A stretch of DNA of 64,000 nt from an uncultured Actinomycetes bacterium (GCA_963809325.1 CAWEIZ010000002.1:452793-516792); one strand, 5' to 3'. Positions 7,301 to 59,311 are shown, numbered from the stretch's first letter. The notes: generated by a model not told the origin, from the sequence alone. A program made the numbers and translations.

Positions 7301-9838
7301 GTGGCGTCCCCCAGCCGTCAACAGGCGCTGTTCGAGCTTGCCCGTGACCTCTCGTCGACGCTCGAGCTCGACGAGGTCGCCCGGGCATTCACGGCCCATG
7401 CTCCTGAGCTGACCGGCGGTGAGGTCCGGATCTGGCTCCTGCGCGACCGCCCACGGCGGCTGGTCCCGCTCAGCGAGCCCGTGGCCGAGCGGCCGCTCGA
7501 CGATGACGCCGCGGAGCTGGCGGTCATCCGCTCGCGCCGGCCGCTTCGGACTCCGGCCCTCTTCATCCTCCCGCTCACCGCATCCGACCGCGCGATCGGC
7601 GTCATCGAGGTCGACGGCGCGTCGACGGCCCAGCTCGCATCGGGCGGGATGCAGTACTGGCGCACGCTCGGCGAGATCGTCGGCGCAGCGGTCGAGAACG
7701 CGCGCCGCCACGAGAAGCTGATGGAGGCCGCGAGCCGCTTCCGGTCGCTCGTCGAGCAGATCCCGGTGGTGACGTACATCGATCGCGCCGGCACCGGCGA
7801 GCCGATCTACGTGAGCCCGCAGATCGACGCCGTCATCGGCGTGCCGGCCGCCGAGTGGCTGGCCAACCCCGACGCCTGGACGGCCAGGATCCACCCCGAC
7901 GACCGCGACGCGGCGGTCGCGGCGTACGGGCGGACGATCGAGCTCGGCGAGCCGTTCACGTTCGAGTACCGGGTGATCGACGTGTCGGGTCGGACGCGCT
8001 GGTTTCACGACGAGGCCGTCGCCGTGGCGACCGACGGCAACCGTGACGACGAGATCCACGGCGTGGTCTACGACATCACCGAGCGCAAGGAGGCCGAGCA
8101 GGCCATGCGGGCGTCGGAGCGAGCCCTCGGCGATGCCGAGCACCGCTACCGGACGCTCGTCGAGCAGCTGCCCCTCGCCATCTACATCGATGCGCTCGAC
8201 GAGGGCGGGACGTCGCTCTACAACAGCCCCCAGAACGACGTGATCACCGGCTACACGCATCCCGAGTGGGAGCAGGATCCCGACCTCTTCGCCAAGATCA
8301 TCCACGAGGACGACCGCCGCCGGGTGCTTGATGGCTTCGAGGCCGCCCGGATCGACAGCGCGCCGTTCGTGAGCGAGTACCGCATCGTGCGCCCCGACGG
8401 AACGATGGTGTGGGTGCACGACGAGTCGGTCGTCGTGCGCGATGCCGCCGGAGAGGCGCTCCACCGCCAGGGCTATCTCCTCGACATCACCCAGCGCAAG
8501 CTCGCGGAGGAGCGGCTCGGGCACCTCGCCTACCACGACTCGCTGACAGGCCTTCCGAACCGCGACCTGTTCTCGGAGCACCTGGAGGTCGCGCTGGCGC
8601 GGGCGGAGCCGACCGGTCACGGCGTCGCCGTGCTGTACGTCGACCTCGACGACTTCAAGCTCGTCAACGACTCGCTCGGCCACAGCGCCGGCGACGAGCT
8701 CCTGATCGAGGTGGCGCAGCGGCTCCTCGGCGCGGTGCGCTCGGGCGACATCGTCGCCCGCCAGAGCGGGGACGAGTTCCTGATCCTGGTCGCCGACCTC
8801 GACGTCTCTGCCGACGGCGACGGCGTCGCCATCGCCGATGTGGCGCGCAACATCGCCCAGAACCTGCGGACGGCGCTCGCCGCGCCGTTCGAGCTCGGTG
8901 GCACCGAGGTGTACTGCTCCGGCAGCGTCGGCATCAGCATCTATCCGGTCGACGCCGTCGACGCGGCCAGCCTGCTGAAGCACGCCGACGCCGCCATGTA
9001 CCGGGCCAAGGAGTCGGGCCGGGACGGCGCCCACCTGTACACGCGCGAGGGCGGCGACGCGATGGCGCGCCTCTCGATGGCCGGGCGGCTGCGCCGGGCC
9101 GCCGCGCGGGACGAGTTCGTGCTGCACTACCAGCCGCTGGTCGACCTCTCGACGGGAGCGGCGGTCGGCGTCGAGGCCCTCATCCGCTGGTTCGACGGCG
9201 ACCGGGGGATGATCATGCCCGGAGACTTCATCCCGCTCGCAGAGCGCACCGGCCTGATCGCGCCGATCTCGGAGTGGGTCGTCGAGGAGGCCTGCCGCCA
9301 GGGCCGAGCCTGGCGCGACGCCGGGCTCGACCTCTACGTCTCGGTGAACCTGCCGGCCGCCTTCTGGGAGCCGACCGCGATGCGGCACGTCCTCGACACG
9401 ATCGAGTCGTTCGGCCTCTCGCCCGACCGGATGATGATCGAGATCACCGAGTCGACCGCCGCTCGGGAGGGCTTTCGCGAGGCACCGATCCTCGCCGAGC
9501 TTCACGAGCGCGGCCTGCGCCTGGCCATCGACGACTTCGGCACGGGCCATTCGAGCCTCGAGCGCCTGAACCGGATGGCCGTGACGACGCTCAAGATCGA
9601 CCGCTCGTTCGTCGCGGGCGTGCCCGCCGATCGCAGCGCGTGCGTCCTCGTCGCGGCGATGCTCGGGCTCGCCGACGGGCTCGGCCTTCAGGCTTTGGCG
9701 GAGGGCATCGAGACCGAGGCCCAGCGCGCATTCCTGCTGGACCACGGCTGCCCGCTCGGACAGGGCTTCCTGTTCTCGCCGGCGGTCGCGCCAACGCAGG
9801 TCGAGCCGCTCGTGCGGCGGCTCCCGCGGGCGGCCTGA
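7301..9838 (+). CDS. GAF-PAS-PAS-GGDEF-EAL signalling protein (GGDEF site reads SGDEF)
   Basis: A GAF-like N-terminus and two PAS units are followed by a GGDEF domain ([10 protein letters not shown]) and an EAL domain ([25 protein letters not shown]). GTG 7301 is preferred because it has a GGGAAGGG RBS and does not overlap the previous ORF. GTG 7214 is the alternative. Confidence 0.85.
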
Positions 9839-9843
9839 GTCTC

Positions 9844-9893
9844 GACGAACCCCGTGGGGCCAGGCCCCGTACGGGGCCTGGCCCCGGTTGTTC
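9844..9893. repeat. REP-like palindromic element, copy A
   Basis: Sequence GACGAACCCCGTGGGGCCAGGCCCCGTACGGGGCCTGGCCCCGGTTGTTC. The core is a perfect 13-bp stem, GGGGCCAGGCCCC/GGGGCCTGGCCCC, around a GTAC loop. It starts 6 nt after the stop at 9838. Confidence 0.9.
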
Positions 9894-9954
9894 GCCGCGG
9901 CGAATGGGGACCAGGTATCGCATCGAAAGCGTGACAACTGGCCGGTTTAGCCTG

Positions 9955-10004
9955 GACGAACCCCGTGGGGCCAGGCCCCGTACGGGGCCTGGCCCCGGTT
10001 GTTC
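9955..10004. repeat. REP-like palindromic element, copy B
   Basis: Identical 50-nt copy of element A, 61 nt downstream. It ends 6 nt before the convergent kynU stop at 10010. Confidence 0.9.
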
Positions 10005-10009
10005 TGCGC

Positions 10010-11272
10010 CTACGTGACCCGAGACGGAGTGTCGGCCATCCGCTCGTGCTCGCCCGACTCGACGATGCCCGCGAGCCGGTCGATCGCGTCCCAGACGTCG
10101 ACGTAGCGCGTGTAGAGCGGCGCCAGCCCGAAGCGGATCGAGTCGGGCGCGCGGAAGTCGGGGATGACGTCCGCGCGCTCGACGAGCGCCCGGCAGATCC
10201 GCCACGCGTCTGGATGGCGTAGCGACACGTGCGCACCGCGGCGCTCGGCGGCGCGCGGAGTCCCGAGCGTGAAGCCGAGCTGCGCCAGGCGCTGGTCGTG
10301 GAGGTCGACGGCGAGGGTCGTGAGCGCCGCCGCCTTGGCCCGCACGCGGCCGATGCCCGCCTCGGCGAGCATGTCCGCACCCGCCTCGACGGCCGCCAGG
10401 GCGATGATCGGCGGCGTCCCGGCCAGGAACCTCCCGATCCCCTCGACCGGCCGGTACTCGGGCCCCATCGCGAACTGATCCTCCTGCGAGAACCAGCCCC
10501 AGATCGGCGAGCGCAGCTGCGCGCTGCAGCTCCGAGCGGACGTAGAGGAGCGCGGGCGAACCCGGGCCGGCGTTCAGGTACTTGTAGGTGCACCCGACGG
10601 CCAGGTCGGCGCCGACCGCGTCGAGGTCGACCTCGACGGCGCCGGCGGCATGGCACAGGTCCCACAGGACGAGCGCCCCCGCCGCGTGGCCGGCCGCCGT
10701 GATCTCGGCCATGCCGCGCCAGCGCGCCGGAGCGGTAGTTCACCGCCGAGAGCACGACCAGCGCCGCCCCGCCCGCGCACGCCTCCTCGATCTCGGCCGG
10801 CTGCGGGCCGGCGACGGGATCGGCGGCGAGCATGCGAAGCTCGCGGCCGGTCCGGGCGGCCAGGCCCTGGAGGACGTAGCGGTCGGTGGGGAAGTCGGAC
10901 GAGTCGGCGACGATCGCGCCCGGCCGGGCGTCGAGCGCCGCTCCGGCGAGCTTGTACAGGTTGACCGTCGTCGAGTCCGACACGATGACCTGCCCCGGCG
11001 CCGCGCCGAGCGCCGCCGCGCCGAGCCGGTCGCCGGCGGCCGTCGGGGCCTCGACCCAGTCGTTCCAGCCCGTCACGAGCCGGTCGCGCCCACTCGCCGA
11101 TCCGGCGCTCGAGCGCGGCCTGGGCGTCGTGCGCGAGCGGTCCGAGCGAGTTGCCGTCGACGTAGATCCTCGGCGCGTCTCCGAGCGCGAACCGGCCGCG
11201 GAACGCCGCGAGCGGGTCGGCCGTGTCGAGAGCCTCGGCGTCCGCCCGCGTGGTCAGTGCCGTTCGAGCCAC
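10010..11272 (-). pseudogene. kynU: kynureninase, three frameshifts
   Basis: Four minus-strand ORF pieces join into one kynureninase: DPLAAFRGRF...YVDGNSLGP...IGEW / TGWNDWVEAP...VNYRSGALA / [30 protein letters not shown]...[24 protein letters not shown] / [22 protein letters not shown]... The frame changes near 11086-11092, 10714-10718 and 10519-10523. Confidence 0.8.
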
Positions 11273-26966: not shown

Positions 26967-27557
26967 ATGCCTGAGACCATCCGCATCCCCGCTCGCGAGG
27001 GCCACGCCCTGCGCATGTCCGCCGGCGACCGCATCCGCGTCATCGACCCCGAGGGCGGCCAGGTTGCCGACGTGTTCGCCTTCTGTGCCGACGACCTGTC
27101 GGAGTACCACTCGGCCGAGCACACGCGCGTGTACGTGAGCCGGCTCTTCCCGCGCGTCGGCGAGCAGTTCGTGACGAACCGGCGCCGCCCGATCCTGACG
27201 CTCGAGGCCGACACGTCGCCCGGCATCCACGACATGCTCTGCGCGGCCTGCGACCCGAGCCGCTACGCCGGCCTCGGCGTCGAGGGCTGGCACGCCTCCT
27301 GCCAGGAGAACCTCCAGAAGGCGATGGCCGCGCTCGGCTACGAGGGCATCGAGATCCCCCAGCCGATCAACGTCTTCATGAACATCCCTGTGCGCGACGA
27401 CTGGGAGCTTGGGTGGGAGCCGGCGCCGACGAAGCCCGGCGACTCGGTCACGCTGCGCGCGGAGCGCGACATCGTCTTCGCGGTCTCGGCCTGCCCGCAG
27501 GACCTCGTCAGCATCAACGCCGGCAGCCCCGGCCCGATCGACCTCGAGCTCCAGTAA
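26967..27557 (+). CDS. DUF1989 family protein (urea-carboxylase-associated / carboxyguanidine-deiminase-like)
   Basis: ATG 26967 is in frame within track ORF 26715..27557. Blocks GGQVADVFAF, HSAEHTR, TNRRRPILT, IHDMLCAACD and INVFMN match my memory of DUF1989. Confidence 0.75.
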   Translation: MPETIRIPAREGHALRMSAGDRIRVIDPEGGQVADVFAFCADDLSEYHSAEHTRVYVSRLFPRVGEQFVTNRRRPILTLEADTSPGIHDMLCAACDPSRYAGLGVEGWHASCQENLQKAMAALGYEGIEIPQPINVFMNIPVRDDWELGWEPAPTKPGDSVTLRAERDIVFAVSACPQDLVSINAGSPGPIDLELQ

Positions 27558-27616
27558 CCACCGGGGCCAGGCCCCATCGCCCGCAGGCGATGGGGCCCGA
27601 CCCCACGGGGTTGGTC
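27556..27616. repeat. REP-like palindromic element, copy C
   Basis: AACCACCGGGGCCAGGCCCC-[ATCGCCCGCAGGCGAT]-GGGGCCCGACCCCACGGGGTTGGTC. It fills the whole gap between the convergent stops at 27555-57 and 27615-17 and overlaps both. Confidence 0.85.
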
Positions 27617-28592
27617 AGCGGTGAGCGTCGGCGTAGGCGGCCAGCGTGTCGGCGATCACCTGGCACGCGGCCATGGCGGACTCGCCGTTGTCGTACGCCG
27701 GGGCGACCTCGCAGACGTCCATCGCCACGATGTTCGCGCGGCCGATCACCGAGACCATCGTGAGCGCCTCGCGCGAGGTGAGCCCGCCCATCGTCGGGAC
27801 GCAGGTTCCGGTGCAGACGGAGCTGTCGAGGCTGTCGACGTCGAAGCTGAAGTAGACGCCGTCGGTGCCGTCGGACGCGATCTGGACCGCCTCCTCGGCG
27901 ATCGCCCGTGCACCGCGGCGGTCGACGTCGGAGACGTGGAAGACGGTCACGCCCGCCTCGCGCACGTAGGCGTACTCGCTCTTCGGGTTCATCGCCCCGT
28001 GCGGGCCGATGATGACGCACTTGGCAGGGTCGAACGCCGCGAGCTCCATCGCCCGCGTGATCGGGCAGCAGTGGTTGATCCGCTCGCCGCCGACGTCGGG
28101 CGCCGTGTCGAGGTGCGTGTCGACCAGGATCAGCCCGTACGTCCCCTCCGGCGCGTGCCGGTCGACGGCCATCGAGCCGCCGATCGTCGTGATGTGCTCG
28201 CCCCCGCACAGGACGGGGATCGCGCCCGCCTTGATCGCCTCGCCCATCGCGTCGGCGACGAGGTCGACGGTCTTGGCAGCGTTGGCCGGGACGACGGCGA
28301 CGTCGCCCATGTCGGCGACGCCGAGCGCCTCGAAGATGTCGAGGTCGTACTCGCCGTGGTAGGAGAGCATGTGGCTCGACCAGTCCCGCACCGCCCGGGG
28401 GCCGAGCTGGGCCCCCGGACGGGCGATCGTGGTCGAGTCGAACGGCATGCCAAGGAAGGCTGCCTTGACGCCCGCCGCCCGCAGGGCATCGGCGTCGGCC
28501 TCCACCTGGGGGGCGCCCATGAACGTGGCGATCCCGCCCACGAGCACGGAGTGCCACCCCTGGCGGGTCTGTTGCGAAGCGACGGAGCTCAT
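27615..28592 (-). CDS. arginase/agmatinase (ureohydrolase) family protein, divergent signature
   Basis: The ureohydrolase fold reads GGEHIT, LVDTHLD and SFDVDSLD. The six predicted Mn-ligand positions are retained but flanking residues are atypical. Confidence 0.8.
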   Translation of the reverse strand: MSSVASQQTRQGWHSVLVGGIATFMGAPQVEADADALRAAGVKAAFLGMPFDSTTIARPGAQLGPRAVRDWSSHMLSYHGEYDLDIFEALGVADMGDVAVVPANAAKTVDLVADAMGEAIKAGAIPVLCGGEHITTIGGSMAVDRHAPEGTYGLILVDTHLDTAPDVGGERINHCCPITRAMELAAFDPAKCVIIGPHGAMNPKSEYAYVREAGVTVFHVSDVDRRGARAIAEEAVQIASDGTDGVYFSFDVDSLDSSVCTGTCVPTMGGLTSREALTMVSVIGRANIVAMDVCEVAPAYDNGESAMAACQVIADTLAAYADAHR

Positions 28593-43484: not shown

Positions 43485-44418
43485 CGTCCGCGCGGCGCTC
43501 GCGGCGTGCGTCGCCGTGGCCGCTCTCGGGGTCGCCGCACCGGGCGCTGCCGCCGGGCCGCTGGCGGGCGCGTGCACCGGGCAGGCCGGCCACCCCGCGA
43601 CCTACCGTCACGTCCTCGTGATCGTGATGGAGAACCACTCGGCCCGCCAGATCGTGGGCTCGCCGAAGACGCCCTTCATCACGAGCGTCGCCCGCAGGTG
43701 CGGCTGGGCGTCGCAGTTCCACAGCATCACGCACCCGTCGCTCCCGAACTACCTCGCGCTCACGTCCGGCTCGACGGCCGGGATCACGACCGACTGCAAC
43801 GGCTGCCGCAGCAGCGGGCCGAGCATCTTCGAGCAGGTCGAGGCCGCCGGTCGATCGTGGCGGGCCTACGAGGAGTCGATGCCGTCGCCGTGCCTGCGCG
43901 CCGACCACGGCCGCTACCTGATGCGCCACAACCCGCCCGCCTACTTCACGCATCTTCGGCCGACGTGCCCGGCGTCCGACCTGCCGATGGGCACCCCAGC
44001 GCGGGGAGCGCTGCGGCACGCCCTCCGCCAGAACACGCTGCCGGCGTACTCGTTCGTGACGCCGGACGCCTGCCACGACATGCACGACTGCCCGAAGCGG
44101 GTGGGCGACGCATGGCTCAGGTCGTGGCTGCCGCTGATCCTCGCGAACACGTCGTACCAGAACGGCGAGCTGGTCGTCTTCCTGACGTTCGACGAGGGCC
44201 AGGGCGGCGTCGAGGGCGAGAGCTGCCACCTGCACCCGAGCGACCCGAGCTGCCATGTGGCGACGATCGTGATCAGCCCGTACATCGAGCCGGGAACCGT
44301 CTCGCGCACGCCGTTCACGCACTACTCGCTCCTGCGCACGACCGAGAACCTGCTCGGCCTGCCGCTCCTCGGGCGGGCGCAGAACGCGGTCGGGATGCGG
44401 CGCGCGTTCGGGCTCTGA
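43450..44418 (+). CDS. secreted phosphoesterase family protein (acid phosphatase / PLC-like)
   Basis: Signal peptide, then HVLVIVMENHS, HPSLPNYLALTSG and TFDEG. The start overlaps the previous gene and is uncertain. Confidence 0.75.
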   Translation: MSRRWSRPRSRSVRAALAACVAVAALGVAAPGAAAGPLAGACTGQAGHPATYRHVLVIVMENHSARQIVGSPKTPFITSVARRCGWASQFHSITHPSLPNYLALTSGSTAGITTDCNGCRSSGPSIFEQVEAAGRSWRAYEESMPSPCLRADHGRYLMRHNPPAYFTHLRPTCPASDLPMGTPARGALRHALRQNTLPAYSFVTPDACHDMHDCPKRVGDAWLRSWLPLILANTSYQNGELVVFLTFDEGQGGVEGESCHLHPSDPSCHVATIVISPYIEPGTVSRTPFTHYSLLRTTENLLGLPLLGRAQNAVGMRRAFGL

Positions 44419-44462
44419 ACGACCCCTGGGGCCAGGCCCGTGGGGCCTGGCCCCGGTGGTTC
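44417..44462. repeat. REP-like palindromic element, copy D
   Basis: GAACGACCCCTGGGGCCAGGCCCGTGGGGCCTGGCCCCGGTGGTTC. It begins inside the TGA stop at 44416-18. Confidence 0.85.
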
Positions 44463-44481
44463 GGGTCCCAACTTGCGTCCC

Positions 44482-44497
44482 TAGTGAATATTCACTA
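44482..44497. promoter_or_regulatory. perfect 16-bp palindrome, candidate TetR operator overlapping the tetR promoter
   Basis: TAGTGAATATTCACTA lies between TTGCGT (44473-78) and TAACCT (44496-501), which are separated by a 17-nt spacer. ATG 44512 follows. Confidence 0.65.
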
Positions 44498-45132: not shown

Positions 45133-46685
45133 CCTCTGACCATCCGAACCACAAGTGGTGGACGCTCTTCGCCATGTGCTTCGCCCTCTTCATGATCATG
45201 CTCGACAACACGATCGTGAACGTGGCGCTGCCGTCGATCCAGCACTCGCTGAACCCGTCGCCGGAGAACCTCGAGTGGACGATCAACGCCTACGTCCTCG
45301 TGTTCGCGACGCTGATCCTGCTCGGCGGGAAGCTGGGCGACCGCTACGGCCGCAAGCGCATCTTCCTCCTGGGTCTTGCGATCTTCACGCTGGCCTCGGC
45401 CGGCTGCGCCCTGGCCCAGTCCGACACGCAGCTGATCGTCGCCCGGGCCATTCAGGGCGTCGGCGGTGCGTTCCTGAACCCGCTCTCGCTCTCGATCATC
45501 GTCGCCGCCTTCCCGCGCCGGCAGCTTCCCCAGGCCATCGGCATCTGGGCCGGCATCTCGGGCCTCGGCCTCGCCATCGGCCCGCTCCTGGGCGGGTTCC
45601 TGGTCGAGCACTTCTCGTGGTCGGCCGTCTTCTGGGTGAACGTGCCGGTGGGCATCGTCGCGGCCGCCGCGACGGTGTGGGCCGTGGTCGAGTCGCGCGA
45701 CACGACGACCCACAGCCTCGACATCGTCGGCACGGTGCTCATCACCGCCGGCCTCGGCGCCCTCACGTGGGGGCTCATCAAGACCGCCAGCCACGCCTGG
45801 CTGAGCCCGTACACGCTCGGCTTCCTCGGCGCGGCCGCCGTGCTAATCGCGCTGTTCGTGCTGTGGGAGAGCCGCCATTCCGACCCGATGGTGCCGCTCG
45901 AATTCTTCAGGTCACCCGCATTCACATCGTCGAGCATCATCGTCACGCTGATCGGCGTGGGGCTCTTCGGCGTCATCTACTTCCTGACGCTCTACTTCCA
46001 GAACGTCGAGGGCTACTCGCCGATCGAGGCGGGCGTGCGCACGCTGCCCACGACGATGATGATCCTGTTCGTCGCCCCGATCGCCGGCAAGCTGGGGCCG
46101 AGGATCGGGCCGCGAAAGCTCATGACGTTCGGCATGCTGACCGCGACCGTCGGCCTCGTCGGGCTCTCGTTCATCGACGTCGGCACGAGCTACAACGCGA
46201 TCTGGCCGTTCCAGATGCTGCTCGGCATCGGCCTCGCCTCGACGATGCCGGCGAGCGCCGCGACCGCCATGGGCGCGGTCGACCATGCCAAGGCCGGCGT
46301 GGCATCGGGCGTCATCAACGCGTCGCGCCAGGTGGGGGGCGCGCTCGGGATCGCGGTCCTGGGCGGCATCGGTGCGACGCTGGCCGCGAACGCCTGGTCG
46401 GACAAGATCGCCAACCTGCCGCCGGCGCGGCACGCGCTGGCCGAGCAGCTCACGCCGCTCGTCCAGGGCGGCCGCGGCAACGTGATCGAGCGGCTGACGG
46501 GAAGTCATCTCGCAGCCACTGAGGCGCTGGACTCGTTCATGAGCGGCGTCCACGCGGCGCTGCTCACGGCCGGCGCGCTCACGTTCCTGGCCGCGATCGT
46601 GGCACTCGTCGGCCTGCGCGGCGTCCACGTCAGCGAGCCGGCCGAGGGCCGCGACGCGGCCCCGGCGGCCATCGTCGAGGCCTGA
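45129..46685 (+). CDS. MFS transporter, DHA2 (EmrB/QacA, 14-TMS) type
   Basis: MLDNTIVNVALPSI, GKLGDRYGRKRIF and a 14-helix layout. ATG 45129 is in frame within track ORF 44634..46685. Confidence 0.9.
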   Translation: MTSDHPNHKWWTLFAMCFALFMIMLDNTIVNVALPSIQHSLNPSPENLEWTINAYVLVFATLILLGGKLGDRYGRKRIFLLGLAIFTLASAGCALAQSDTQLIVARAIQGVGGAFLNPLSLSIIVAAFPRRQLPQAIGIWAGISGLGLAIGPLLGGFLVEHFSWSAVFWVNVPVGIVAAAATVWAVVESRDTTTHSLDIVGTVLITAGLGALTWGLIKTASHAWLSPYTLGFLGAAAVLIALFVLWESRHSDPMVPLEFFRSPAFTSSSIIVTLIGVGLFGVIYFLTLYFQNVEGYSPIEAGVRTLPTTMMILFVAPIAGKLGPRIGPRKLMTFGMLTATVGLVGLSFIDVGTSYNAIWPFQMLLGIGLASTMPASAATAMGAVDHAKAGVASGVINASRQVGGALGIAVLGGIGATLAANAWSDKIANLPPARHALAEQLTPLVQGGRGNVIERLTGSHLAATEALDSFMSGVHAALLTAGALTFLAAIVALVGLRGVHVSEPAEGRDAAPAAIVEA

Positions 46686-46688
46686 GCT

Positions 46689-46716
46689 GAACCACCGGGG
46701 CCTGGCCCCTCGGGTC
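46689..46716. repeat. REP-like element, truncated copy E
   Basis: GAACCACCGGGGCCTGGCCCCTCGGGTC, the left arm only. It lies between the convergent stops at 46683-85 and 46717-19. Confidence 0.6.
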
Positions 46717-47538
46717 CTAGGACACCGACCAGCTGTCGCGGCTCAGGAAGAAGCTGTGCCCGGAGGTGCTCGAGCACTGAAGGCCCGACGAGTCCGAGAG
46801 GCACGTGATGCCGCCCCCGCCCCAGGTCGACCCGTAGTCGAGTGTCGGGGCCGAGTCGTCGTAGATCGTGTCGCTCGCGCAGTTCGGCCTGGCCTTGCCG
46901 TGTGAGGAGAGGACGGCGCCGCCCCAGTCGCCGGCGCAGCTCTTGGCCGGCGGCGGCTTGAGGCCGCTTCGGATGTCGCACCGCACCGTCGTGCCCTCGA
47001 GCTCGCACCCGATGTTCCCCGAGGGCATCTTGAAGCTCGCCGTCGTCAGGATCGGATAGCCGAGCGCCTTGCAGGCCACGAGCGTCTGATCGTCGAGCGG
47101 GAGGGACGTGCACCCGATGTCGGTCCCGACGTTGAAGATGTTCCACTGCGTCCCGTCCCACGACAGGAACACCTGGGCCGAGTCGTAGCAGTCGGCCACG
47201 CCCTCCTGGCAGACGGAGCGGTCCGGCACCGCGATCACGAACGCGTAGTCGTTCTGGCAGCGGATCACCTTGACCTTCACGATCGTGTACTTCTCGGCCG
47301 TCCCGTCCATCTTGGCCTTGAGCACCGGCAGCAGGTCGCTCGCGGCGCACGGGGCCGCCGAGCCCGTGCCGGTCGACGAGCCCACGGTGTCGGTCGCAGT
47401 CTTGGTGACGGTGCTGGTGACCGTGACGCCGCTCGAGCCCGAGCTGCCGCTTCCGCCGCACGCCGCCGTGGCCGCCAGGACGATGACCGCCGATACCAGA
47501 AGGCCGGCTGCCCGCCCGGCCGTGGATGAGGTCCGCAT
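46717..47538 (-). CDS. lipoprotein, unknown function (Cys-rich)
   Basis: Signal peptide with a lipobox-like LAATAAC, a Gly/Ser linker, then a Cys-rich body. ATG 47538 is in frame within track ORF 46717..48567. Confidence 0.65.
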   Translation of the reverse strand: MRTSSTAGRAAGLLVSAVIVLAATAACGGSGSSGSSGVTVTSTVTKTATDTVGSSTGTGSAAPCAASDLLPVLKAKMDGTAEKYTIVKVKVIRCQNDYAFVIAVPDRSVCQEGVADCYDSAQVFLSWDGTQWNIFNVGTDIGCTSLPLDDQTLVACKALGYPILTTASFKMPSGNIGCELEGTTVRCDIRSGLKPPPAKSCAGDWGGAVLSSHGKARPNCASDTIYDDSAPTLDYGSTWGGGGITCLSDSSGLQCSSTSGHSFFLSRDSWSVS

Positions 47539-49534: not shown

Positions 49535-50650
49535 ATGCGCGCATCCGAGACGTTCAGGCGTGCGGGCGGTCGCCGGTGGGCATCGCTCGCGGTGGCGGTC
49601 GCCGTGACGCTCACCGTGGCGGCACCGGCCGGTGCGGCGACCTACCGGGTGGTCGACCTGGGGACGCTCGGAGGGGCGTCGAGCGCCGCAACCGACCTGA
49701 ACAACGCGGGCGCCGTGGTGGGCTGGTCGCGCACCGCCTCGGGCCATGTGCACGCGGTCGTGTGGCGAAACGGCCGAAAGACCGACATCGGGACGCTCGG
49801 CGGCCCGACCAGCATGGCCACCGGGATCAGCAACACGTTCGCCGTCGTCGGCACCGCGAGCGTCGCCGCCGGAGGGCCGCAGCACGGGTTCCTGTGGCGG
49901 GCCAACCAGGGCGCGATGCACAACATCGGGATCCCGCTTCCTGTGCGGATCGGCGACACCGGAGCGATCATCGGCAACGCCACCACCGCGGCCGGCGAGT
50001 CGGTCGCCGCCTACCGCAACCAGCACGGTTGGGTCCGGCTGCCGCTGCGCGGGTTCGACGGCAGCCACGGCGAGGACGTGAACGACGCCGGCACCGCCGT
50101 CGGAACGCTCTTCGACGATCCTCACGGCTCGGCGCCGTTCGTCTATGCGAACGGTGTGCTGACCATCCTGCCGTCCGTGCCGACCGCGGCCGAGACATCG
50201 GCCGACGCGATCAACGACGCCGGCCAGATCGCCGGTCAGACGTTCGATCCGCTCGGGATCGTGCTCTGGGACGGGATGAGCTGGCACCCGGTCCCGACAC
50301 CGGCGCTGGTCGAGCCCGAGATCCACGACATGAACGACTGCGGCCAGATCGTCGGCGCGCACCATCCCGAGGAGTTCTTCAAGCCGCACGCGTTCCTCAT
50401 CGCAAACGGGGTGGGCGTCGACCTGAACTCGCAGATCCCGGCCGGCTCCGGCTGGCGGCTCGGCACGGCCAGCGCGATCAACGACGCGGGCGAGATCGCC
50501 GGCGTCGGACGCCACAACGGCAAGCAGCACGCCTTCCTGCTGGTGCCGAGCGGGCCCCGGGGCGGGCTGTCCCTGAGGCCGCCGGGGCGTCAGGGCGACG
50601 CCCTTGGTCGCGATGGAAGGAACCTCGGTCGCCCGCCGTCTACTCACTGA
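49535..50650 (+). CDS. secreted HAF-repeat protein
   Basis: Signal peptide plus repeats (DLGTLGG..S.A..(L/I)N..G..VG, HAV/HGF/HAF). The 371-aa ORF is intact. Confidence 0.8.
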   Translation: MRASETFRRAGGRRWASLAVAVAVTLTVAAPAGAATYRVVDLGTLGGASSAATDLNNAGAVVGWSRTASGHVHAVVWRNGRKTDIGTLGGPTSMATGISNTFAVVGTASVAAGGPQHGFLWRANQGAMHNIGIPLPVRIGDTGAIIGNATTAAGESVAAYRNQHGWVRLPLRGFDGSHGEDVNDAGTAVGTLFDDPHGSAPFVYANGVLTILPSVPTAAETSADAINDAGQIAGQTFDPLGIVLWDGMSWHPVPTPALVEPEIHDMNDCGQIVGAHHPEEFFKPHAFLIANGVGVDLNSQIPAGSGWRLGTASAINDAGEIAGVGRHNGKQHAFLLVPSGPRGGLSLRPPGRQGDALGRDGRNLGRPPSTH

Positions 50651-52625: not shown

Positions 52626-55520
52626 CTAGCCGGTCGTCGGCGCGCGGCCGGCGGTGCGGAGCATCTGCGCGAACATGGCGGCCGACTGCGGCCGCTGGGC
52701 CGGGTCGTCGGCGAGCGCCGTGCCGATCGCCCACCCGAGGTCGTCCGACACGGTGCCGCCCCTGGCGAGGCACGCCTGGGCGATCGCCGCGAGCTCGTAG
52801 ACGTCGCTCGCCGGCGTCGGCTCGGCGCCGCCCTGCGCCTCCGGCGCGCCGCTCTTCTCGGCGCTCGTCGCGACCGGGACGAGCAGCGCGCGGCCGTCGG
52901 CGTCGAACAGGATCGACCCGGTGCGCACGCCGCCGTGGACGATGCCCTCGCGGTGCAGCGCATCGAGCCCGCGCGCGACTCGAACGACGATGCGGATCGT
53001 CTCGTCGGCCGACGGCGTGCGGCCTCCCGCGAGCCGATCGGCCAGCGACCCGCCGTCGCACCACGCGAGGACGAGATACCTCCAGCCGTCGGCCTCGTCG
53101 GCGCGAAGGCCCGGCACGAGGCTCCGGTCCTCCACACGCGCCGCCCGCGCCGCCGCCTCGCGGAGCCGGCGCCAGTCGTCGGCGCCCCCGCCGTCCGATC
53201 GGCCGACCAGGCGCAGCGCCACCGGCATGTCGTCTGCGGTGAGCGCCCGGGCGACGGCCCCGGGGGTCTGCGCGACGCCCTCGAGCGTGTAGGGGCCGAT
53301 CCGCGTCCGCGTCTTCACCGGCGGCTCGCCGACCTGCGCGCCGTCGCGCTGCGCGGGAGGCTCGGGCTCCTCCGCCGCCTCGCCGAGCCGCTCCCGGAGG
53401 CGGTTCGCCGCCTCGGGGTCGTCCATCCGCTCGGCGACGCGGAGGGCCCGCCGCCACAGCCGGACGGCCTCGTCGCGCTGGCCCCACTCCTCGGCGCGCG
53501 CGGCCGAGCGGTCGAGGTACTCGAGCGCCTTCGAGAGGTTCCCGCTCTGGGCGTGGTAGTGCGCGAGCATCTCCATCCGCTCGTCGAGGGCGTCGGCGAA
53601 GAGCTCCTCGAACACCTCCGCCACCCGCGCGCAGAGGGCGGCTCGCCGGGCCTGGGTGAGCGTGCTGCGGGCCGCCTCCTGCAGGAGGCCGTGGCGGAAG
53701 CTGTACTCGAGCTCCGGGTACCGGCGCACCTCGCGGACGACGCCGGAGCGGAGCAGGCCCGGCATCCCCGCCTCGAACCGCTCGGCGCCGGCCACGCGCT
53801 CGAGCACGCGCGCCGGGAACTCGCGGCCGATGACGGCGGCGGTCTGGCCGAGCGTGCGCGCGTCCGGGTCGAGCCGGTCCATGCGCGCGATCAGGAGCGC
53901 GTCGAGCGAGGCGGGGAGCGCCGGGGCGGTTCCGACGGTGACGGTCCAGGCGCGCGGGCGGATCTCCTCGGCTTCGAGCGCGTAGGCCATCTCCTCGAGG
54001 TAGAGCGGATTCCCCTCCGCCCGGGCTACGAGCTCCTCGCGGGTGGTCGGGTCGAGCAGCCCCGACGCGGTGATGTCGAGCAGCTGGCCCGCCGCCCCGT
54101 CGGCGATCGGCTCGAGCGCGATCTCCTCGAACCGGTGGCCGAAGTGCGTCATGGCATGGGCGCGGAAGCGCCACGCGGGCGTGTCGTGCTCGGGCCGGGA
54201 GCTCATCGCGACCATGACGGGCGCCCTGTCGGTCAGCTCGAGCAGGTCCTCGAGCATCTGGCAGGTGGCGACGTCCGCCTCGTGCAGGCCCTCGATCGCG
54301 ACGACGACCGGCGCCTGGTGCGCGAGCCGCAGCGTCCAGTCGCAGAACGCCGCCCGCGTTCCCGCCGCCAGGTCTTCGGCGTTGCCCTCGCGCAGGAGGT
54401 CGCGGTGGTCCGGCTCCGGCTGCACCGAGAGGAGATGGCCGATATACATGAGCGCGTCGTCGGCATCGCCGTCGTAGAGCGCGGGCAGGCGCGCCCGCAG
54501 CCGCGTCCGGACGACGATCTCGCGCTCGGTGTGGTCGATCCCGAGCCACGCCCGGATCATCTCGACGAACGGCTGGTACAGGCCGACCGCTCCGTACGAG
54601 CGGCAGTCGCCCTCGAGCCATGTCACGTCCGGGCCGAGGTTCTCGCGCAGCTCGCCGAGCAGGCGCGACTTGCCGATCCCGGCCTCGCCGATCAGGAGCA
54701 GCGACTGGCCCCGTCCGGCGAGCAGGTCGTCGGCGGCCCGGCGCAGGTGCGCGGCCTCGGCCTCCCTGCCGACCAGCGGCGACTGCGTGTGGTCGCGGCC
54801 GGTCGTCTTCCGGCGCAGGACGCGCCAGGCCGACACGGGAGCCGCGCGCCCCTTGAGCGCGAGCTCGCCCATCGGCTCCAGCACGAAGCGGGGCATGAGC
54901 CGCTGCGCCGTCGTCTCGCCGGTCACGATCGTGCCGGGAGCGGCCGCCGCCTGGAGCCGCGCCGCGACGTTCGTCATGTCGCCGAGCGCCACCGCCTGGG
55001 GCGTGGCCGCCCCGACCACTCCGACGGCGGCGAGGCCGCCGTTGATCCCGATGCGGACGTTGAACTGGTCGATCTCCCAGGCCTGGCGGACGTCCCGGCC
55101 GTACGCTCCCACCATCTGGAGCAGCGCGAGCCCCGCTTCGGCCGCGCGGTCGGCATCGTCCTCGTGGGCGGCCGGGACGCCGAAGTAGGCGCACACGCCG
55201 TCGCCCATGTAGGCCTGCACCGTCCCGCCGAACTCCTCGACGACGCGGCTCATGCGCGTGACGCACTCGCCCACGAGCGCCTTGACCTCGTCGGGGCTCA
55301 TGCGCTCGCCCAGCCCGGTGGAGCCGACGATGTCCGCGAAGAGCGCGGTCACCGGCCGAAGCTCGTCACCCCCGCCGGACCCGCCTGGCTCGGTCGATTC
55401 GGATGGCTGTAACACGCAGTCGTTACGGTAGTGACTTCCGCCCGGAGTCGTCAATCGAGACTGCGCAGGATCGCTGCGCGGTTTGACATCCTGCCGGGAT
55501 CGACGCCGGGTTCTGGTCAC
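52626..55520 (-). CDS. class III cyclase - P-loop ATPase - TPR - degenerate kinase (pseudokinase) fusion protein
   Basis: Cyclase motifs FADIVGST, AYMGDGVCAYFG and GINGG, plus the P-loop GEAGIGKSR. The C-terminal kinase-like fold has VALRLV (Lys to Arg), IVHGGVRTGSILF in place of HRD..KP.N, and no DFG. The start is uncertain (ATG 55520 or GTG 55415). Confidence 0.85.
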   Translation of the reverse strand: MTRTRRRSRQDVKPRSDPAQSRLTTPGGSHYRNDCVLQPSESTEPGGSGGGDELRPVTALFADIVGSTGLGERMSPDEVKALVGECVTRMSRVVEEFGGTVQAYMGDGVCAYFGVPAAHEDDADRAAEAGLALLQMVGAYGRDVRQAWEIDQFNVRIGINGGLAAVGVVGAATPQAVALGDMTNVAARLQAAAAPGTIVTGETTAQRLMPRFVLEPMGELALKGRAAPVSAWRVLRRKTTGRDHTQSPLVGREAEAAHLRRAADDLLAGRGQSLLLIGEAGIGKSRLLGELRENLGPDVTWLEGDCRSYGAVGLYQPFVEMIRAWLGIDHTEREIVVRTRLRARLPALYDGDADDALMYIGHLLSVQPEPDHRDLLREGNAEDLAAGTRAAFCDWTLRLAHQAPVVVAIEGLHEADVATCQMLEDLLELTDRAPVMVAMSSRPEHDTPAWRFRAHAMTHFGHRFEEIALEPIADGAAGQLLDITASGLLDPTTREELVARAEGNPLYLEEMAYALEAEEIRPRAWTVTVGTAPALPASLDALLIARMDRLDPDARTLGQTAAVIGREFPARVLERVAGAERFEAGMPGLLRSGVVREVRRYPELEYSFRHGLLQEAARSTLTQARRAALCARVAEVFEELFADALDERMEMLAHYHAQSGNLSKALEYLDRSAARAEEWGQRDEAVRLWRRALRVAERMDDPEAANRLRERLGEAAEEPEPPAQRDGAQVGEPPVKTRTRIGPYTLEGVAQTPGAVARALTADDMPVALRLVGRSDGGGADDWRRLREAAARAARVEDRSLVPGLRADEADGWRYLVLAWCDGGSLADRLAGGRTPSADETIRIVVRVARGLDALHREGIVHGGVRTGSILFDADGRALLVPVATSAEKSGAPEAQGGAEPTPASDVYELAAIAQACLARGGTVSDDLGWAIGTALADDPAQRPQSAAMFAQMLRTAGRAPTTG

Positions 55521-55558
55521 TCTCGCATCGCCGCTCCGACGCCGTCGGCCGGCGGGGC

Positions 55559-56857
55559 ATGGTCGCGACGTCGAACCCCGACGCCGCGCTCGCCGGGCTG
55601 CGGGCCCTGGAGGCGGGCGGGAACGCGTGTGACGCCGCGCTCGCCGCGGCCGGCGTGCTCGTCGTCACCGAGCCGTACCAGTGTGCGCCGGGCGGCGACC
55701 TCTTCGCGATCGTCGTCCGCGACGGCGAGCCGCCGGTCGGGCTGAACGCCAGCGGACGGGCGCCGGCGGAGCCCGGCGACGCGCTTCCCGAGGAGTTCGG
55801 CCCGCGCAGCGTGACCGTCCCCGGGTGCGTCGCCGGCTGGACCGACCTCGCGGCCAGGTTCTCGCGGCGCGGCCTGGCGGAGGCGCTGGCTCCGGCGATC
55901 GCGCTGGCACGGGGCGGGTTCGAGATCCAGCCCAAGGCCGGGCGCCACTGGCGGGCGTGCCAAGCGAACCTCGAGGGCGACGCCGCCGCAGCATTCGCCC
56001 CGGCCTCGCCGTTTTGCTCGCCGGCCATCGCGACGGCGCTCGAGCACGCGGTCGCCGGGACGTTCTACACCGGGCCGGTCGCCGACGCGATCGCGGCGGT
56101 CTCGTGGCTCGACAAGGCGGACCTCGCGGCGCACGAGAACGACTGGGTCGAGCCGGTCGAGTTCGCCTACCGCGATCGCACGCTGCTCGAGCTGCCGCCG
56201 AACGGCCAGGGGTCGATCGCGGGCTGGGCGCTGGAGGGGCTCGAGTCGCCCGACCCGCCCGCCCAGGTCGAGGCGCTCGCCGCCGCCTACGCGCGTGGCT
56301 ACGCCACCATCGGCGGCACGGCGTACGTCTGCGCCGCCGACGGTGAGGGGATGGCCGTGTCGCTCATCCAGTCGGTCTACCACGGCTTCGGCTCGCGGGT
56401 GCTCGTGCCGGGCTTCGGGTTCGTGCTCCAGAACCGGGGCGCCGGGTTCGTGCTCGACCCCGGACACCCGAACCAGTTCGCGCCGGCCAAGCGGCCGTTC
56501 CACACGATCATCCCGGCGGCCCTGCTCGGGCCGGACGGGCGCTGGGAGGCGGTGTTCGGCGTGACGGGAGGGCAGTACCAGCCGCAGGGCCACGTCCAGG
56601 TCGTCGTCAACCTCCTCGACCACGGCATGGGGCCGCAGGCGGCACTCGACGCGCCGCGCTACCGGCTGGAGGAGGACGGCACCGTCTCGCTCGAGTCGCC
56701 GCTCGCGCACCTGGTCGGTGCGTTCGGCGATCGCGCGACGGCGGTCGTCGACACCGACGACAACTACGGGAACGGCCACCTCATCGTGCGCGCGGCCGAC
56801 GGCCGGCTGCTCGGCGGCACCGAGCCGCGCCGCGACGGCCTGGCGGTCGGGCACTAG
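55559..56857 (+). CDS. ggt: gamma-glutamyltransferase family protein (short form)
   Basis: MVATSNPDAALAG..LEAGGNACDAA and the autoprocessing/nucleophile region IGGTAYVCAADGEGMAVSLIQS. The 432-aa ORF is intact. Confidence 0.8.
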   Translation: MVATSNPDAALAGLRALEAGGNACDAALAAAGVLVVTEPYQCAPGGDLFAIVVRDGEPPVGLNASGRAPAEPGDALPEEFGPRSVTVPGCVAGWTDLAARFSRRGLAEALAPAIALARGGFEIQPKAGRHWRACQANLEGDAAAAFAPASPFCSPAIATALEHAVAGTFYTGPVADAIAAVSWLDKADLAAHENDWVEPVEFAYRDRTLLELPPNGQGSIAGWALEGLESPDPPAQVEALAAAYARGYATIGGTAYVCAADGEGMAVSLIQSVYHGFGSRVLVPGFGFVLQNRGAGFVLDPGHPNQFAPAKRPFHTIIPAALLGPDGRWEAVFGVTGGQYQPQGHVQVVVNLLDHGMGPQAALDAPRYRLEEDGTVSLESPLAHLVGAFGDRATAVVDTDDNYGNGHLIVRAADGRLLGGTEPRRDGLAVGH

Positions 56858-56875
56858 ATGATTTCAACCATCTAG
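56854..56875. other. AT-rich perfect inverted repeat CTAGATG-N8-CATCTAG
   Basis: It overlaps the ggt stop codon and lies 11 nt before the next gene's GTG. It could be an operator or a small hairpin; the function is unknown. Confidence 0.4.
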
Positions 56876-56885
56876 TATCGCCGCC

Positions 56886-57734
56886 GTGCCCAGCCTGACC
56901 ACCAAGGACGGCCGCACCCTCGCGTGGCACGAGCGCGGCTCGGGCCCGCCGCTCCTCTGTCATCCGGGCGGGCCCGGATGCTCGTCGGCGTACTTCGGCG
57001 ACCTCCCCGAGCTGGCGACCGAGCGCACGCTGCTTCTGCTCGATCCGCGCGGCACGGGCGCGTCCGACCCGCCGGCCGACCCGTCGGCCTACGACCTCGA
57101 GGACTACGCCGACGACATCGAGGCCGTCCGCCGCCACCTCGGCATCGAGCGGCTCGATCTGCTGGGCCACTCCCACGGCGGGTTCGTGGCCATGCCATGG
57201 GCCGCCCGGCATGCGGAGCACGTGCGAAAGCTGGTGCTCGCCAGCACCGCTCCGCGATTCACCGACGAGATCCGGCAGGCCCGGAGGGACCGGGTCGCCT
57301 CGCACATGGGGCGGCCGTACTTCGCCGACGCCATGCAGGCGTTGCAGCAGCGCGAGGAGGGTCGCTACGCGAACGACGAGGAGCTGACCGACCTCTACCG
57401 GCGCGAGGGCGTGCTCTTCGCCCCGGTGGGCGTCGACCCCACGCCGGTGCTCGACGCGCTCGTGCGCGCAGGCGACAACTCCGATGCGCTTCGCCACTTC
57501 AACGAGGAGATCGCCGGCAGCATGGACCAGCGGCCGCTGCTGGCGCACGTGCCGGCGCCGACGCTCGTGATCACCGGATCCGAGGACGCGTTCGTCTCCG
57601 GGGCGCGCGAGATCGCCGAGGCGCTGCCTGACGCGACCCTCGTCATCCTGCCGGGCGTCGACCACTTCCCGTTCCTCGAGCCCGACCACGAGGCGGCCTG
57701 GTCGCGGGCGGTGCTCGACTTCCTGGGGGGCTAG
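56886..57734 (+). CDS. alpha/beta hydrolase (proline iminopeptidase-like)
   Basis: HPGGPG and GHSHGG nucleophile elbow. The 282-aa ORF has a GTG start. Confidence 0.85.
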   Translation: MPSLTTKDGRTLAWHERGSGPPLLCHPGGPGCSSAYFGDLPELATERTLLLLDPRGTGASDPPADPSAYDLEDYADDIEAVRRHLGIERLDLLGHSHGGFVAMPWAARHAEHVRKLVLASTAPRFTDEIRQARRDRVASHMGRPYFADAMQALQQREEGRYANDEELTDLYRREGVLFAPVGVDPTPVLDALVRAGDNSDALRHFNEEIAGSMDQRPLLAHVPAPTLVITGSEDAFVSGAREIAEALPDATLVILPGVDHFPFLEPDHEAAWSRAVLDFLGG

Positions 57735-57736
57735 GC

Positions 57737-57765
57737 GAACCACCGGGGCCAGCCCCACGGGGTCC
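57737..57765. repeat. REP-like element, collapsed copy F
   Basis: GAACCACCGGGGCCAGCCCCACGGGGTCC lies between the convergent stops at 57732-34 and 57770-72. Confidence 0.6.
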
Positions 57766-57769
57766 GGCG

Positions 57770-59311
57770 CTAGGCGGCCGCCGCGCCGACCACCCGGTCG
57801 CGGCCGGCGGTCTTGGCGCGGTAGAGCGCCGCGTCAGCCGTGCGGACGAGCTCGACCCGGTCGTCGGCGTCGGCAGGGAACACGGCCCAGCCGATCGAGG
57901 CCGAGAGCGAGTGGCCGGCGCCCGGCTCGATCGCGAGCGACCGGACCGCCTGGCGCGCGCGGTCGAGCAGGTCGGCGACGCCGTCGGGATCGGTCGTCTC
58001 GAGCAGCACCGCGAACTCCTCGCCGCCGAGGCGGTAGATCCGGTCGGAGCCGCGGAGCACCTGCCGGATCGCCTCCCCCGCCCGGCGCAGCACGGCGTCT
58101 CCCTCCGGGTGCCCGAACGAGTCGTTCACGTCCTTGAAGTGGTCGAGGTCGACCATCGCGAGCGTGAACCCGAGATCGCGCCGCTTCGACACCGCGACGC
58201 GCCGCCGGAGCTCCGACTCGAACGTGCGCCGGTTCGGAAGGCCGGTGAGGGCGTCGTGGCCGGCCGCGCGCTCGAGCTCCTCCTGGCGGAGCACCGTCCG
58301 CCAGAGCGCCGCGAGGTGGCCGAGCATGAGGTCGAGCGCGTGATGGTCGAGCTCGTCGCCGCGTCCCGCCGCGAAGCAGACCGACGCGTGCAGGCCCTCG
58401 CCCGCCGTGTCGACCGGGAGCGTGATCCGCGCCAGCCCGTGCGAGCCGTGCCGGGGCGGGGCGCCTTCGGCGATGCTCAGACAGGCGGCGCCGATGGCCT
58501 CGCGGGGCGCCATGTGCGCGAAGCCGATGAGCTGGCTGCGCGTCGTCGCCTCCTTCGCCCGGCTCGACCAGGCGAGGACCTGCTCGATCTGCCGGGCCCA
58601 GCGGCCGTGCCGGTCGTGGCGGGAGTCGGCGTCGACGGCGAGCCGCCAGGCCTTCTGGAGGAGCAGCGCGCCTCCGGCGAGGAGCACGCCCATGCCGATG
58701 AGGGTCGCCGCGAGCACCGCGATGTCCGAGAGCCGCGTGGCGTGGGCGGCGTCGGCGTCGGCCCGGGTCGCGACCGTGGTCAGCCGGTTCGCGCTCGCAG
58801 CGAGGCGACGCTCGAGGGCCGCGCCGCGCCGGTCGACGCCGGCGGGCGGGGGAGCGGTCGGACGATCCGCCGATGCCGTCGATGCCTCCCAGCGCTGAAT
58901 GGCGGACGCCAGCGCCTGTGCTTTGCCGACCGATGCCCCTGCGGCGCCCGCCGCGCGAACGGTGCGGGCGAACCGGGCGATGCCGCGCTTCGTCGCCGCC
59001 CGATCCGCGGTCAGGGCGTTCGCGTCGCGCGCGTCATGCGAGAGCTGCCAGGCGAGGCGATGGTTCATCTCCTGCTGAATCGAGCCGAGCAGCGCCGTCG
59101 CGGCGGCCTGGGCGTGGTCGCCGGCCGTCGCGCGATGGGATGCATCCGATCGGTAGATGCCCGTCGCCACGCTCGTGGCCACGATCGCCACGATGATGCC
59201 CGCGGTGGCAACGGCCCAGAGCAGGGCGAACCGCCGTACCTGATTGGCGATCCGGGGCTGCGCGGGTACGCGTGGCTGGTCGAGCTGTCGAACGGGGGAA
59301 TCCGACCGCAT
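57770..59311 (-). CDS. membrane-anchored diguanylate cyclase (GGDEF; GGEEF site)
   Basis: Two TM segments flank a helical sensor region, followed by a GGDEF domain (DALTGLPNRR, DHFKDVNDSFGH, RLGGEEFAVLL). Confidence 0.85.
   Translation of the reverse strand: MRSDSPVRQLDQPRVPAQPRIANQVRRFALLWAVATAGIIVAIVATSVATGIYRSDASHRATAGDHAQAAATALLGSIQQEMNHRLAWQLSHDARDANALTADRAATKRGIARFARTVRAAGAAGASVGKAQALASAIQRWEASTASADRPTAPPPAGVDRRGAALERRLAASANRLTTVATRADADAAHATRLSDIAVLAATLIGMGVLLAGGALLLQKAWRLAVDADSRHDRHGRWARQIEQVLAWSSRAKEATTRSQLIGFAHMAPREAIGAACLSIAEGAPPRHGSHGLARITLPVDTAGEGLHASVCFAAGRGDELDHHALDLMLGHLAALWRTVLRQEELERAAGHDALTGLPNRRTFESELRRRVAVSKRRDLGFTLAMVDLDHFKDVNDSFGHPEGDAVLRRAGEAIRQVLRGSDRIYRLGGEEFAVLLETTDPDGVADLLDRARQAVRSLAIEPGAGHSLSASIGWAVFPADADDRVELVRTADAALYRAKTAGRDRVVGAAAA

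Follow-up and report, generated by a model that had tools for sequence, protein, structure and literature searches.

The stretch of DNA considered here comprises 64,000 nucleotides from an uncultured actinomycete (GCA_963809325.1 CAWEIZ010000002.1:452793-516792) and is called the window throughout, always at its full length. It has a GC content of 72% and carries six copies of a GC-rich palindromic repeat of 45-60 bases, placed against the ends of ordinary chromosomal genes. Since the closest named relatives of the agmatinase encoded in the window are Gaiellales, its source is a Gaiellales-type actinobacterium. We consider it probable that the copies are non-autonomous palindromic repeats of the type known as repetitive extragenic palindromes (REPs) and REP doublets forming hairpins (REPINs), in a clade of uncultured Gaiellales (Actinomycetota), and that they are transcribed as a hairpin in the 3' untranslated region (3' UTR). 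We favour this reading because of the anatomy of the copies, their dispersal, their gain and loss between close relatives, and the presence in related genomes of a gene for a REP-associated tyrosine transposase (RAYT) bracketed by the core of the repeat. All six copies were found where the sequence-only reading had placed them, as follows.

9844..9895, minus strand: copy A, full element with the 4-nt loop GTAC; covariance model 9847-9895(-), 73.8 bits.
9955..10006, minus strand: copy B, identical to A; covariance model 9958-10006(-), 72.4 bits.
27553..27617, plus strand: copy C, full element whose loop is the 16-nt nested hairpin ATCGCCCGCAGGCGAT; covariance model 27553-27613(+), 54.7 bits.
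44417..44465, minus strand: copy D, full element with a short loop; covariance model 44419-44464(-), 50.4 bits.
46687..46718, plus strand: copy E, one-core collapsed remnant; covariance model 26.1 bits.
57735..57765, plus strand: copy F, one-core collapsed remnant; covariance model 32.9 bits.

The 13-nt core of the repeat, GGGGCCWGGCCCC, occurs eight times in the window with at most one mismatch, against 0.26 occurrences expected, and none of 100 shuffles reached eight. When the whole window was searched, with filters off, by a covariance model made from 41 distinct family members, these six loci and no others were recovered, the next match having an E value of 0.28. A tRNA scan found no tRNA gene in the window, and neither a transposase nor an integrase was found among its ~55 proteins and five extra open reading frames (ORFs) scanned in the gaps.

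Every copy begins or ends 0-5 nt from a stop codon or overlaps one, and these stops are real gene ends, as the Pfam domains of the flanking proteins reach the C-termini. Copy A starts 5 nt past the TGA (9836-9838(+)) of a PAS-GGDEF-EAL gene, and copy B ends 3-5 nt short of the stop (10010-10012(-)) of a convergent kynureninase-C gene. Both lie within a 111-nt tandem duplication (9829-9898 / 9940-10009, 70 nt at 89% identity) that takes in some of the flanking sequence upstream. They had been described as identical, which they are; their orientation has to be corrected, A and B being direct repeats of each other and both inverted relative to C. The ends of copy C overlap both convergent stops, TAA at 27555-27557(+) of a DUF1989 gene and TCA at 27615-27617(-) of the agmatinase gene. 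The GA of a phosphoesterase gene's TGA (44416-44418(+)) also belongs to copy D, which stands upstream of a co-directional TetR gene. Copy E fills the 31-nt gap between a convergent MFS gene (stop 46683-46685(+)) and a DUF6636 gene (stop 46717-46719(-)), and copy F separates an alpha/beta-hydrolase gene (stop 57732-57734(+)) from the GGDEF gene (stop 57770-57772(-)) convergent with it. The earlier description of this placement thus stands in its main points: the copies adjoin stops, C (on both sides) and D (through TGAAC) use stop bases, five of the six copies lie between convergent genes with D between co-directional ones, and no copy is followed by a T-run that would give a U-tract.

This placement would also suit hairpins that never moved, evolved by the host as terminators or 3'-end stabilisers and kept similar by gene conversion or a common functional constraint; the hairpins are very stable, coincide exactly with the 3' ends of genes and in many cases serve two convergent ones. 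By the criterion for intrinsic (Rho-independent) terminators, the GC-rich hairpin is present and a T-run is found on neither strand; the missing U-tract, common to all copies, speaks against termination of this kind. Intrinsic termination by mycobacterial RNA polymerase has been reported, from in vitro work, to require U-tracts.

Read forwards, the sequence of the element is (C)GAACC-A-CC / GGGGCCAGGCCCC / loop / GGGGCCTGGCCCC / AY / GGGGTTC(G), the short-loop consensus between GGGGCCAGGCCCC and GGGGCCTGGCCCC being GNNC. The unit consists of two inverted half-sites, GAACC(A)CC-GGGGCCAGGCCCC and GGGGCCTGGCCCC-(AY)-GGGGTTC, around the 4-nt loop or the 16-nt nested hairpin, and gives a stem of ~20 bp with conserved bulges, the 13-nt core of each half-site being a perfect palindrome in itself. 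The flanks and the two small bulges are asymmetric, so that orientation can be assigned without ambiguity (flank score ~15 vs 5): the reverse copies are A, B and D, the forward ones C, E and F. The palindrome carries neither a GTAG nor a CGTC tag at its end, the ends being (C)GAAC and GTTC(G); GACG/CGTC is present only in A, B and L093, one of the loci from related assemblies (numbered with an L) that were compared. An assignment to CRISPR was rejected on anatomy.

The four full hairpins in the window (A-D) have folding energies of -43 to -58 kcal/mol, with z scores of -3.5 to -6.6 against shuffled sequence, while E and F fold no better than shuffles (z about 0), as the individual values indicate.

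Copy A, either strand: -43.6 / -48.6 kcal/mol, z -4.3 / -6.1.
Copy C, plus strand / agmatinase-sense strand: -43.8 / -57.8 kcal/mol, z -3.5 / -6.6.
Copy D: -43.2 kcal/mol, z -3.8.
Copy E: -16.1 kcal/mol, z 0.3.
Copy F: -19.0 kcal/mol, z 0.1.

Standard pairs occupy 92% of the stem cells in the 41 distinct copies, against 29-62% when the partners are slid, and five stem pairs change on both sides, including the central W (A..T to T..A) and G-C to A-U at core position 9/5; as many of the 41 rows are orthologs, these statistics are supporting rather than independent evidence. At site C, compared in ten assemblies, the arms vary, one pair occurs as G-C, G.U and A-U, and one-base deletions are paired. 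Such compensatory changes indicate that the stem is maintained, which would be expected of a host terminator or stabiliser. A further observation at site C (window 27553-27617; L199-L208 ~10979-11036) is that the non-Watson-Crick stem pairs, without exception, read G.U on the agmatinase-sense strand and A.C on its complement. This likewise fits a host-evolved hairpin and hints at selection of the hairpin in the agmatinase transcript, although the pattern comprises only three such pairs and is not significant.

The G.U-type intermediates and the arm-to-arm compensatory changes indicate pairing within a single strand, and thereby argue against a double-stranded DNA site bound by a protein dimer (a regulator, gyrase or a nucleoid-associated protein), or a signal of the DNA-uptake type, held in transcriptionally neutral DNA. 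The perfectly palindromic 13-nt core has the typical shape of a dimer site, the orientation of the copies is unbiased, and gyrase and integration host factor (IHF) are established as binding Escherichia coli REPs and the bacterial interspersed mosaic elements (BIMEs) that contain them (PMC3733652). Nevertheless, the tight link with stop codons has no obvious rationale for such a site and no candidate binding protein was identified; we regard it as an improbable explanation of the family, and protein binding could exist alongside another role instead of competing with it.

The sequence-only reading had called the copies REP-like and had suggested a small non-autonomous mobile element, and comparison of orthologous regions bears this out, with presence and absence at sites C, D, E and F in close relatives. 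Ten assemblies encoding an identical agmatinase have the element at site C; relatives at 83% and 77% identity lack it there. At site D the window and L130 carry the element, and the site is empty in L104, L105, L152, L106, L107 and L108 (83-89% nucleotide identity). Site E holds a full element, with the 16-nt nested-hairpin loop, in L104/L139 (93-95% MFS identity), is eroded in L179, and is empty in L105/L106/L107/L110, where a single nucleotide separates the convergent stops (TAGcCTA). As a full element occupies the same site in L104/L139, copy E is not the half copy it had been taken for; what separates it from the full version is the loss of 29 nt between the two directly repeated cores. 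Copy F is indeed a collapsed copy: L020 (MFD00392), which is 85-90% identical to window 54412-62995, keeps the full element at this site, and the one-core remnant in the window has lost 17 nt of it. The sites change independently, because L104 has E and lacks D. The nested loop ATCGCCCGCAGGCGAT is identical at site C of the window and at site E of L104/L139, with a similar loop in L019, and because this variant is common to different loci, whole variant units have been copied between them. Whole units are therefore copied to new sites and lost again, usually no more than ~12 nt downstream of a stop, and copies in place decay by slippage between the two directly repeated cores, the collapsed E and F being probably inert.

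The clean filled and empty alleles are unexplained if the copies are host-evolved terminators or stabilisers, as is the occurrence of the 16-nt loop variant at unrelated loci. Function alone also leaves unexplained why unpaired bulges and flanks (GAACC-A-CC, AY) are conserved across genomes, and the collapsed E and F persist without folding. That a RAYT was not found in this lineage (window, family loci and listed homologs) counts in favour of non-mobile hairpins; on balance, we hold an origin of this kind to be unlikely.

Two observations concern the surroundings of these sites. The L139 locus carries a 1.1-kb block (1037-2117; cupin and MarR genes) between element E and the DUF6636 gene that is absent from the window, so that a difference in gene content falls exactly at the edge of element E. 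Element D is inserted just upstream of a perfect 16-nt palindrome, TAGTGAATATTCACTA (44482-44497), which it leaves intact and which lies 14 nt upstream of the start of the TetR-family gene (44512). This palindrome is unchanged in all eight aligned orthologous loci and is, for this reason, probably a TetR operator.

Beyond the window, an exact-pattern scan with one genome per species matched at least 103 stretches. About 60 of those listed are single chance matches to the left half, and the full elements, whose asymmetric flanks and bulges are those of the window copies, are concentrated in a small number of uncultured soil metagenome-assembled genomes (MAGs). Among the matches listed, MFD02199.bin.2.72 has at least ~20 loci, to be set beside the six copies in the 64-kb window, and full elements also occur in MFD04944.bin.1.18, MFD00392.bin.1.415, MFD05442.bin.1.39 and several 'Gaiellales bacterium' MAGs (SMAGs). 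The element was not found in 80 metagenome loci of relatives with 45-74% MFS identity. Rfam gave no match in the window at the gathering threshold, a full-text literature search for the core sequence returned no paper, literature searches turned up no REP-type family in Gaiellales, and plasmid records contained no match to the core. The earlier statement that this is not a described family is consistent with the Rfam result and the full-text searches.

Placement relative to genes was tabulated for the window and 33 family loci with a simple codon-score gene caller, on which the stop distances outside the window depend. A stop codon lies within 15 nt of 30 of the 42 elements, compared with expectations of 6% for random intergenic positions (p ~1e-27) and 9% for convergent and tandem gaps only (p ~1e-22). 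The position of the copies relative to gene ends, as noted earlier for the window, is thus strongly non-random in the family as a whole. Distances run from -2 to +12 nt and then show a gap to at least 37 nt, and 9-10 of the 42 copies share bases with the stop codon. Interior copies are distributed over 21 convergent, 14 tandem and 2 divergent gaps, that is, 21/37 are in convergent gaps, which make up 17% of gaps. In co-directional gaps, 8/14 copies lie in the first 15% beside the upstream stop and leave 50-990 nt free (p = 3e-4), so proximity to the stop is not explained by shortage of space. The end of the element that faces the stop shows no bias (19:19), and no conserved flanking target motif was found at the element borders. 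All seven doublets (in L031, L036, L045, L059, L083, L096 and at window 9844-10006) are direct repeats, with spacers of 10-147 nt.

The proximity to stops, non-random even where a spacer of 50-990 nt is free, is either an insertion preference or the result of selection; selection against promoter-proximal insertions can give a similar picture. Insertion might be actively directed to the first few nucleotides after the stop, the element being a stop-codon-seeking relative of Y1 transposons that possibly tunes translation termination. The signal could be a target containing T(G/A)A, rare outside stops in DNA of 72% GC, or alternatively single-stranded DNA or RNA that becomes exposed on uncoupling of translation from transcription. 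The clustering at -2 to +12 nt and the 9-10/42 stop-sharing copies permit such directed insertion, no target motif and no orientation bias accompany them, and we consider it a doubtful account.

A position directly after stops, bulged imperfect palindromes and ...AAC / GTT... termini are also features of attC, the recombination site of integron gene cassettes, and a few right ends (GTTAGGC or GTTAGAC) fit GTTRRRY. However, most ends are CGAAC / GTTCG and violate both RYYYAAC and GTTRRRY. Moreover, the copies are 2-18 kb apart in mixed orientation inside conserved multi-gene synteny, the indels at orthologous sites consist of the element alone and not of an ORF with its site, and the window proteins scanned include no integrase. 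Having failed the R-box consensus, the cassette-array organisation and the single orientation, the attC explanation is effectively refuted.

A candidate for the mobilising enzyme was found in related genomes. A scan of the DNA of all loci for the motif HxH...Y..NP gave one match, a 180-aa ORF in L074 (MAG MFD05502.bin.2.61), which has an exact core 80 nt upstream and another 13 nt downstream, the latter as GAACGGCC-GGGGCCAGGCCCC on the other strand. The protein alone had no match in Pfam or PDB sequence searches. Within its family HxH and Y..NPV are invariant, 28/30 homologs match PF01797, and the sole PDB match of the family profile is 4ER8, TnpArep. The AlphaFold2 (AF2) model (pLDDT 92) has as its best Foldseek match the same 4ER8, a REP-associated tyrosine transposase bound to a REP hairpin (E 1.9e-7, TM 0.70/0.75), with IS200/IS605 transposases ranking after it, and the homologs bear the JGI (Joint Genome Institute) name 'REP element-mobilizing transposase RayT'. 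The gene has one conserved position, sigma70 - asparaginase II / RAYT / ArsR-MFS or Fapy-CBS-TK (thymidine kinase), in many genomes including a Gaiellaceae MAG, in keeping with the vertical inheritance in single copy that is described for RAYTs (PMC5581495). Exact cores stand on both sides of the RAYT gene in L074, L184, L195-198 and L213-215, and in the clade 66-100% identical to L074 these two are the only exact cores in loci of 12-20 kb. The bracketing palindrome changes with the RAYT clade, being GGGCCTGGCCC, GGGGTCTGRCCC, GGTGGCAGCCACC and GGTAGCTGCTAC in distant clades. A P0046-type RAYT (54% identical, at another location) is preceded by a loop-less double core, GGAACACC-TGGGGCCTGGCCC-GGGCCAGGCCCCA-GGTT, with AAC..CC and GGTT flanks, as in the family of the window.

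Between the upstream core and the RAYT start, several clades (L074 3746-3800; equivalents in L184, L195 and L213) have a conserved box, GAAAGGnTCrCAACTT, which might serve the RAYT gene as promoter or 5'-UTR signal. The thyX/superoxide dismutase region of the window was considered as a RAYT neighbourhood and set aside, the resemblance being too slight for usable synteny. In some genomes IS110- and IS481-family transposases lie 4-9 kb from the RAYT gene (L187-L189 19627-20543; L190 14278-15243). In other bacteria, relatives of IS110 are known to target REPs.

The presence of IS110 and IS481 transposases in related genomes, together with terminal inverted repeats (CGAACC...GGTTCG), small size, intergenic position and presence/absence polymorphism, would be compatible with a classical MITE (miniature inverted-repeat transposable element), a deletion derivative of a DDE-type insertion sequence (IS) moved in trans through its terminal repeats. 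Yet no target-site duplication was seen between filled and empty sites D and E, the element is hairpin throughout without an internal non-palindromic segment, no IS with ends matching the element (CGAACCACCGGGGCC...) was found in ~1.9 Mb of loci, and the sole gene bracketed by the core is a Y1 transposase. A classical MITE is accordingly a quite improbable identity for the family.

For the REP/REPIN-type reading, which we prefer, we propose the following mechanism. The copying enzyme would be a single-copy, vertically inherited REP-associated tyrosine (Y1/HUH) transposase, as judged from the related genomes with the core-bracketed gene. The copies are presumably transcribed, because they are located in 3' UTRs, often common to convergent genes, and the hairpin would most likely block 3'-to-5' exonucleases and/or hinder read-through, by analogy with E. 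coli REPs. Several points weigh against this reading. A search with 120 RAYTs (tblastn) found no RAYT in the window or the 33 family loci, its matches being confined to RAYT-query loci and L074; among the 120 RAYT homologs listed, none is on the 3.58-Mb, 1.09-Mb and 1.06-Mb contigs of the window's species. The sequence-only reading had suggested looking for a RAYT elsewhere in the genome; what was found is a core-bracketed gene of RAYT fold in related Gaiellales. The RAYT of the window's species is either below ~46% identity to the query or absent; among the best 120 asparaginase II homologs listed (at least 73% identity), too, none is on the contigs of this species. The repeats next to RAYT genes are single or abutting cores that score at most 18 bits, a weak and partial match, with the covariance model of the dispersed element. 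Orientation is unbiased towards the stop and mixed in the window, where strand-specific insertion at the replication fork would predict otherwise; the ends lack a GTAG or CGTC tag; and part of the presence/absence pattern could reflect deletions only. The role in the 3' UTR (exonuclease barrier, brake on convergent read-through, possibly translation termination) would follow from position and stability only.

Some further features of the window deserve mention. A strong inverted repeat unrelated to the family, at 62064-62106 (arms of 21 nt that are 95% complementary, with a 1-nt spacer), separates the superoxide dismutase (61430-62053) and glycosyltransferase (62096-63403) genes, and three in-frame ~48-nt repeats (50188-50502, 71% identity) lie within an ORF without Pfam match (49592-50650). 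At 59375-60920 the thyX (Thy1) domain is divided between two overlapping ORFs in different frames, and next to element B (10010-11250) the callable kynureninase comprises the C-terminal 152 aa only; the split thyX and the short kynureninase may be frameshifts, pseudogenes or assembly errors.

The Gaiellales family leaves current concepts unchanged and extends REP/REPIN-RAYT biology to an abundant, almost uncultured lineage of soil actinobacteria. With its 13-nt palindromic core, 4-nt loop and fixed bulges, the system is unusually compact and could reveal how hairpins are read by a Y1 transposase and what makes repeats settle so tightly against stop codons. The repeats are also strain-level markers, likely places for short-read assemblies and gene callers to break in these MAGs, and candidate 3'-UTR regulators of many convergent gene pairs.

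The family can be compared with several known systems. The hairpin-only 'I-shaped' terminators proposed for high-GC actinobacteria, and stabilising stem-loops, likewise place a strong GC hairpin without a U-tract directly after genes, and like them the copies described here could potentially act on both convergent transcripts. Unlike them, the Gaiellales copies share a 45-nt consensus that includes unpaired bases and vary between strains, and therefore form a repeat family rather than a set of locus-specific terminators. Liang, Rudd and Deutscher are said to have found in 2015 that an E. coli REP no more than 15 nt from the stop causes ribosome stalling and trans-translation; a stable hairpin 0-12 nt after the stop resembles this arrangement in geometry only, and offers a lead.

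REPs with GTAG or CGTC tags have been described mainly between convergent and unidirectional ORFs, where they adjoin or overlap coding sequence and in many cases contribute the stop codon with one of their ends; their stems contain G.T pairs, and they are associated with RAYT-like genes (PMC3733652, Di Nocera et al. 2013). The Gaiellales family shares these features, the RAYT link being known from related genomes, and its stop overlap and convergent placement thus match what is already reported for REPs. The difference lies in the ends, (C)GAAC / GTTC(G), and in the stops, supplied as T+GA(AC) or TAA(C) and not as TAG.

The closest likeness is to the REP/REPIN-RAYT systems, as represented by the REP-BIME and TnpA-REP of E. 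coli (PDB 4ER8) and the REPINs of Pseudomonas fluorescens. Common to these and the Gaiellales family are short GC-rich imperfect palindromes in which two inverted half-sites fold into a single long hairpin, dispersed extragenic copies downstream of genes (here six in the window and at least ~20 loci in MFD02199.bin.2.72), presence or absence between close relatives, decay into singlets, and a single-copy syntenic Y1/HUH gene bracketed by the core, which here is known from related genomes and not from the window's species. The Gaiellales family departs from the known REPs in five ways. Its host phylum is different, Gaiellales being a deep-branching actinobacterial order, and the hosts discussed in the RAYT surveys consulted being proteobacteria, cyanobacteria, Chlorobia, Caldilineae and Clostridia (PMC5581495). 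The 13-nt half-site core is perfectly palindromic in itself. The loop is very short (4 nt), which makes the element far more compact than the Pseudomonas REPINs. The ends are GAAC/GTTC, and the doublets are exclusively direct (7/7), in contrast to the alternating copies of E. coli BIMEs.

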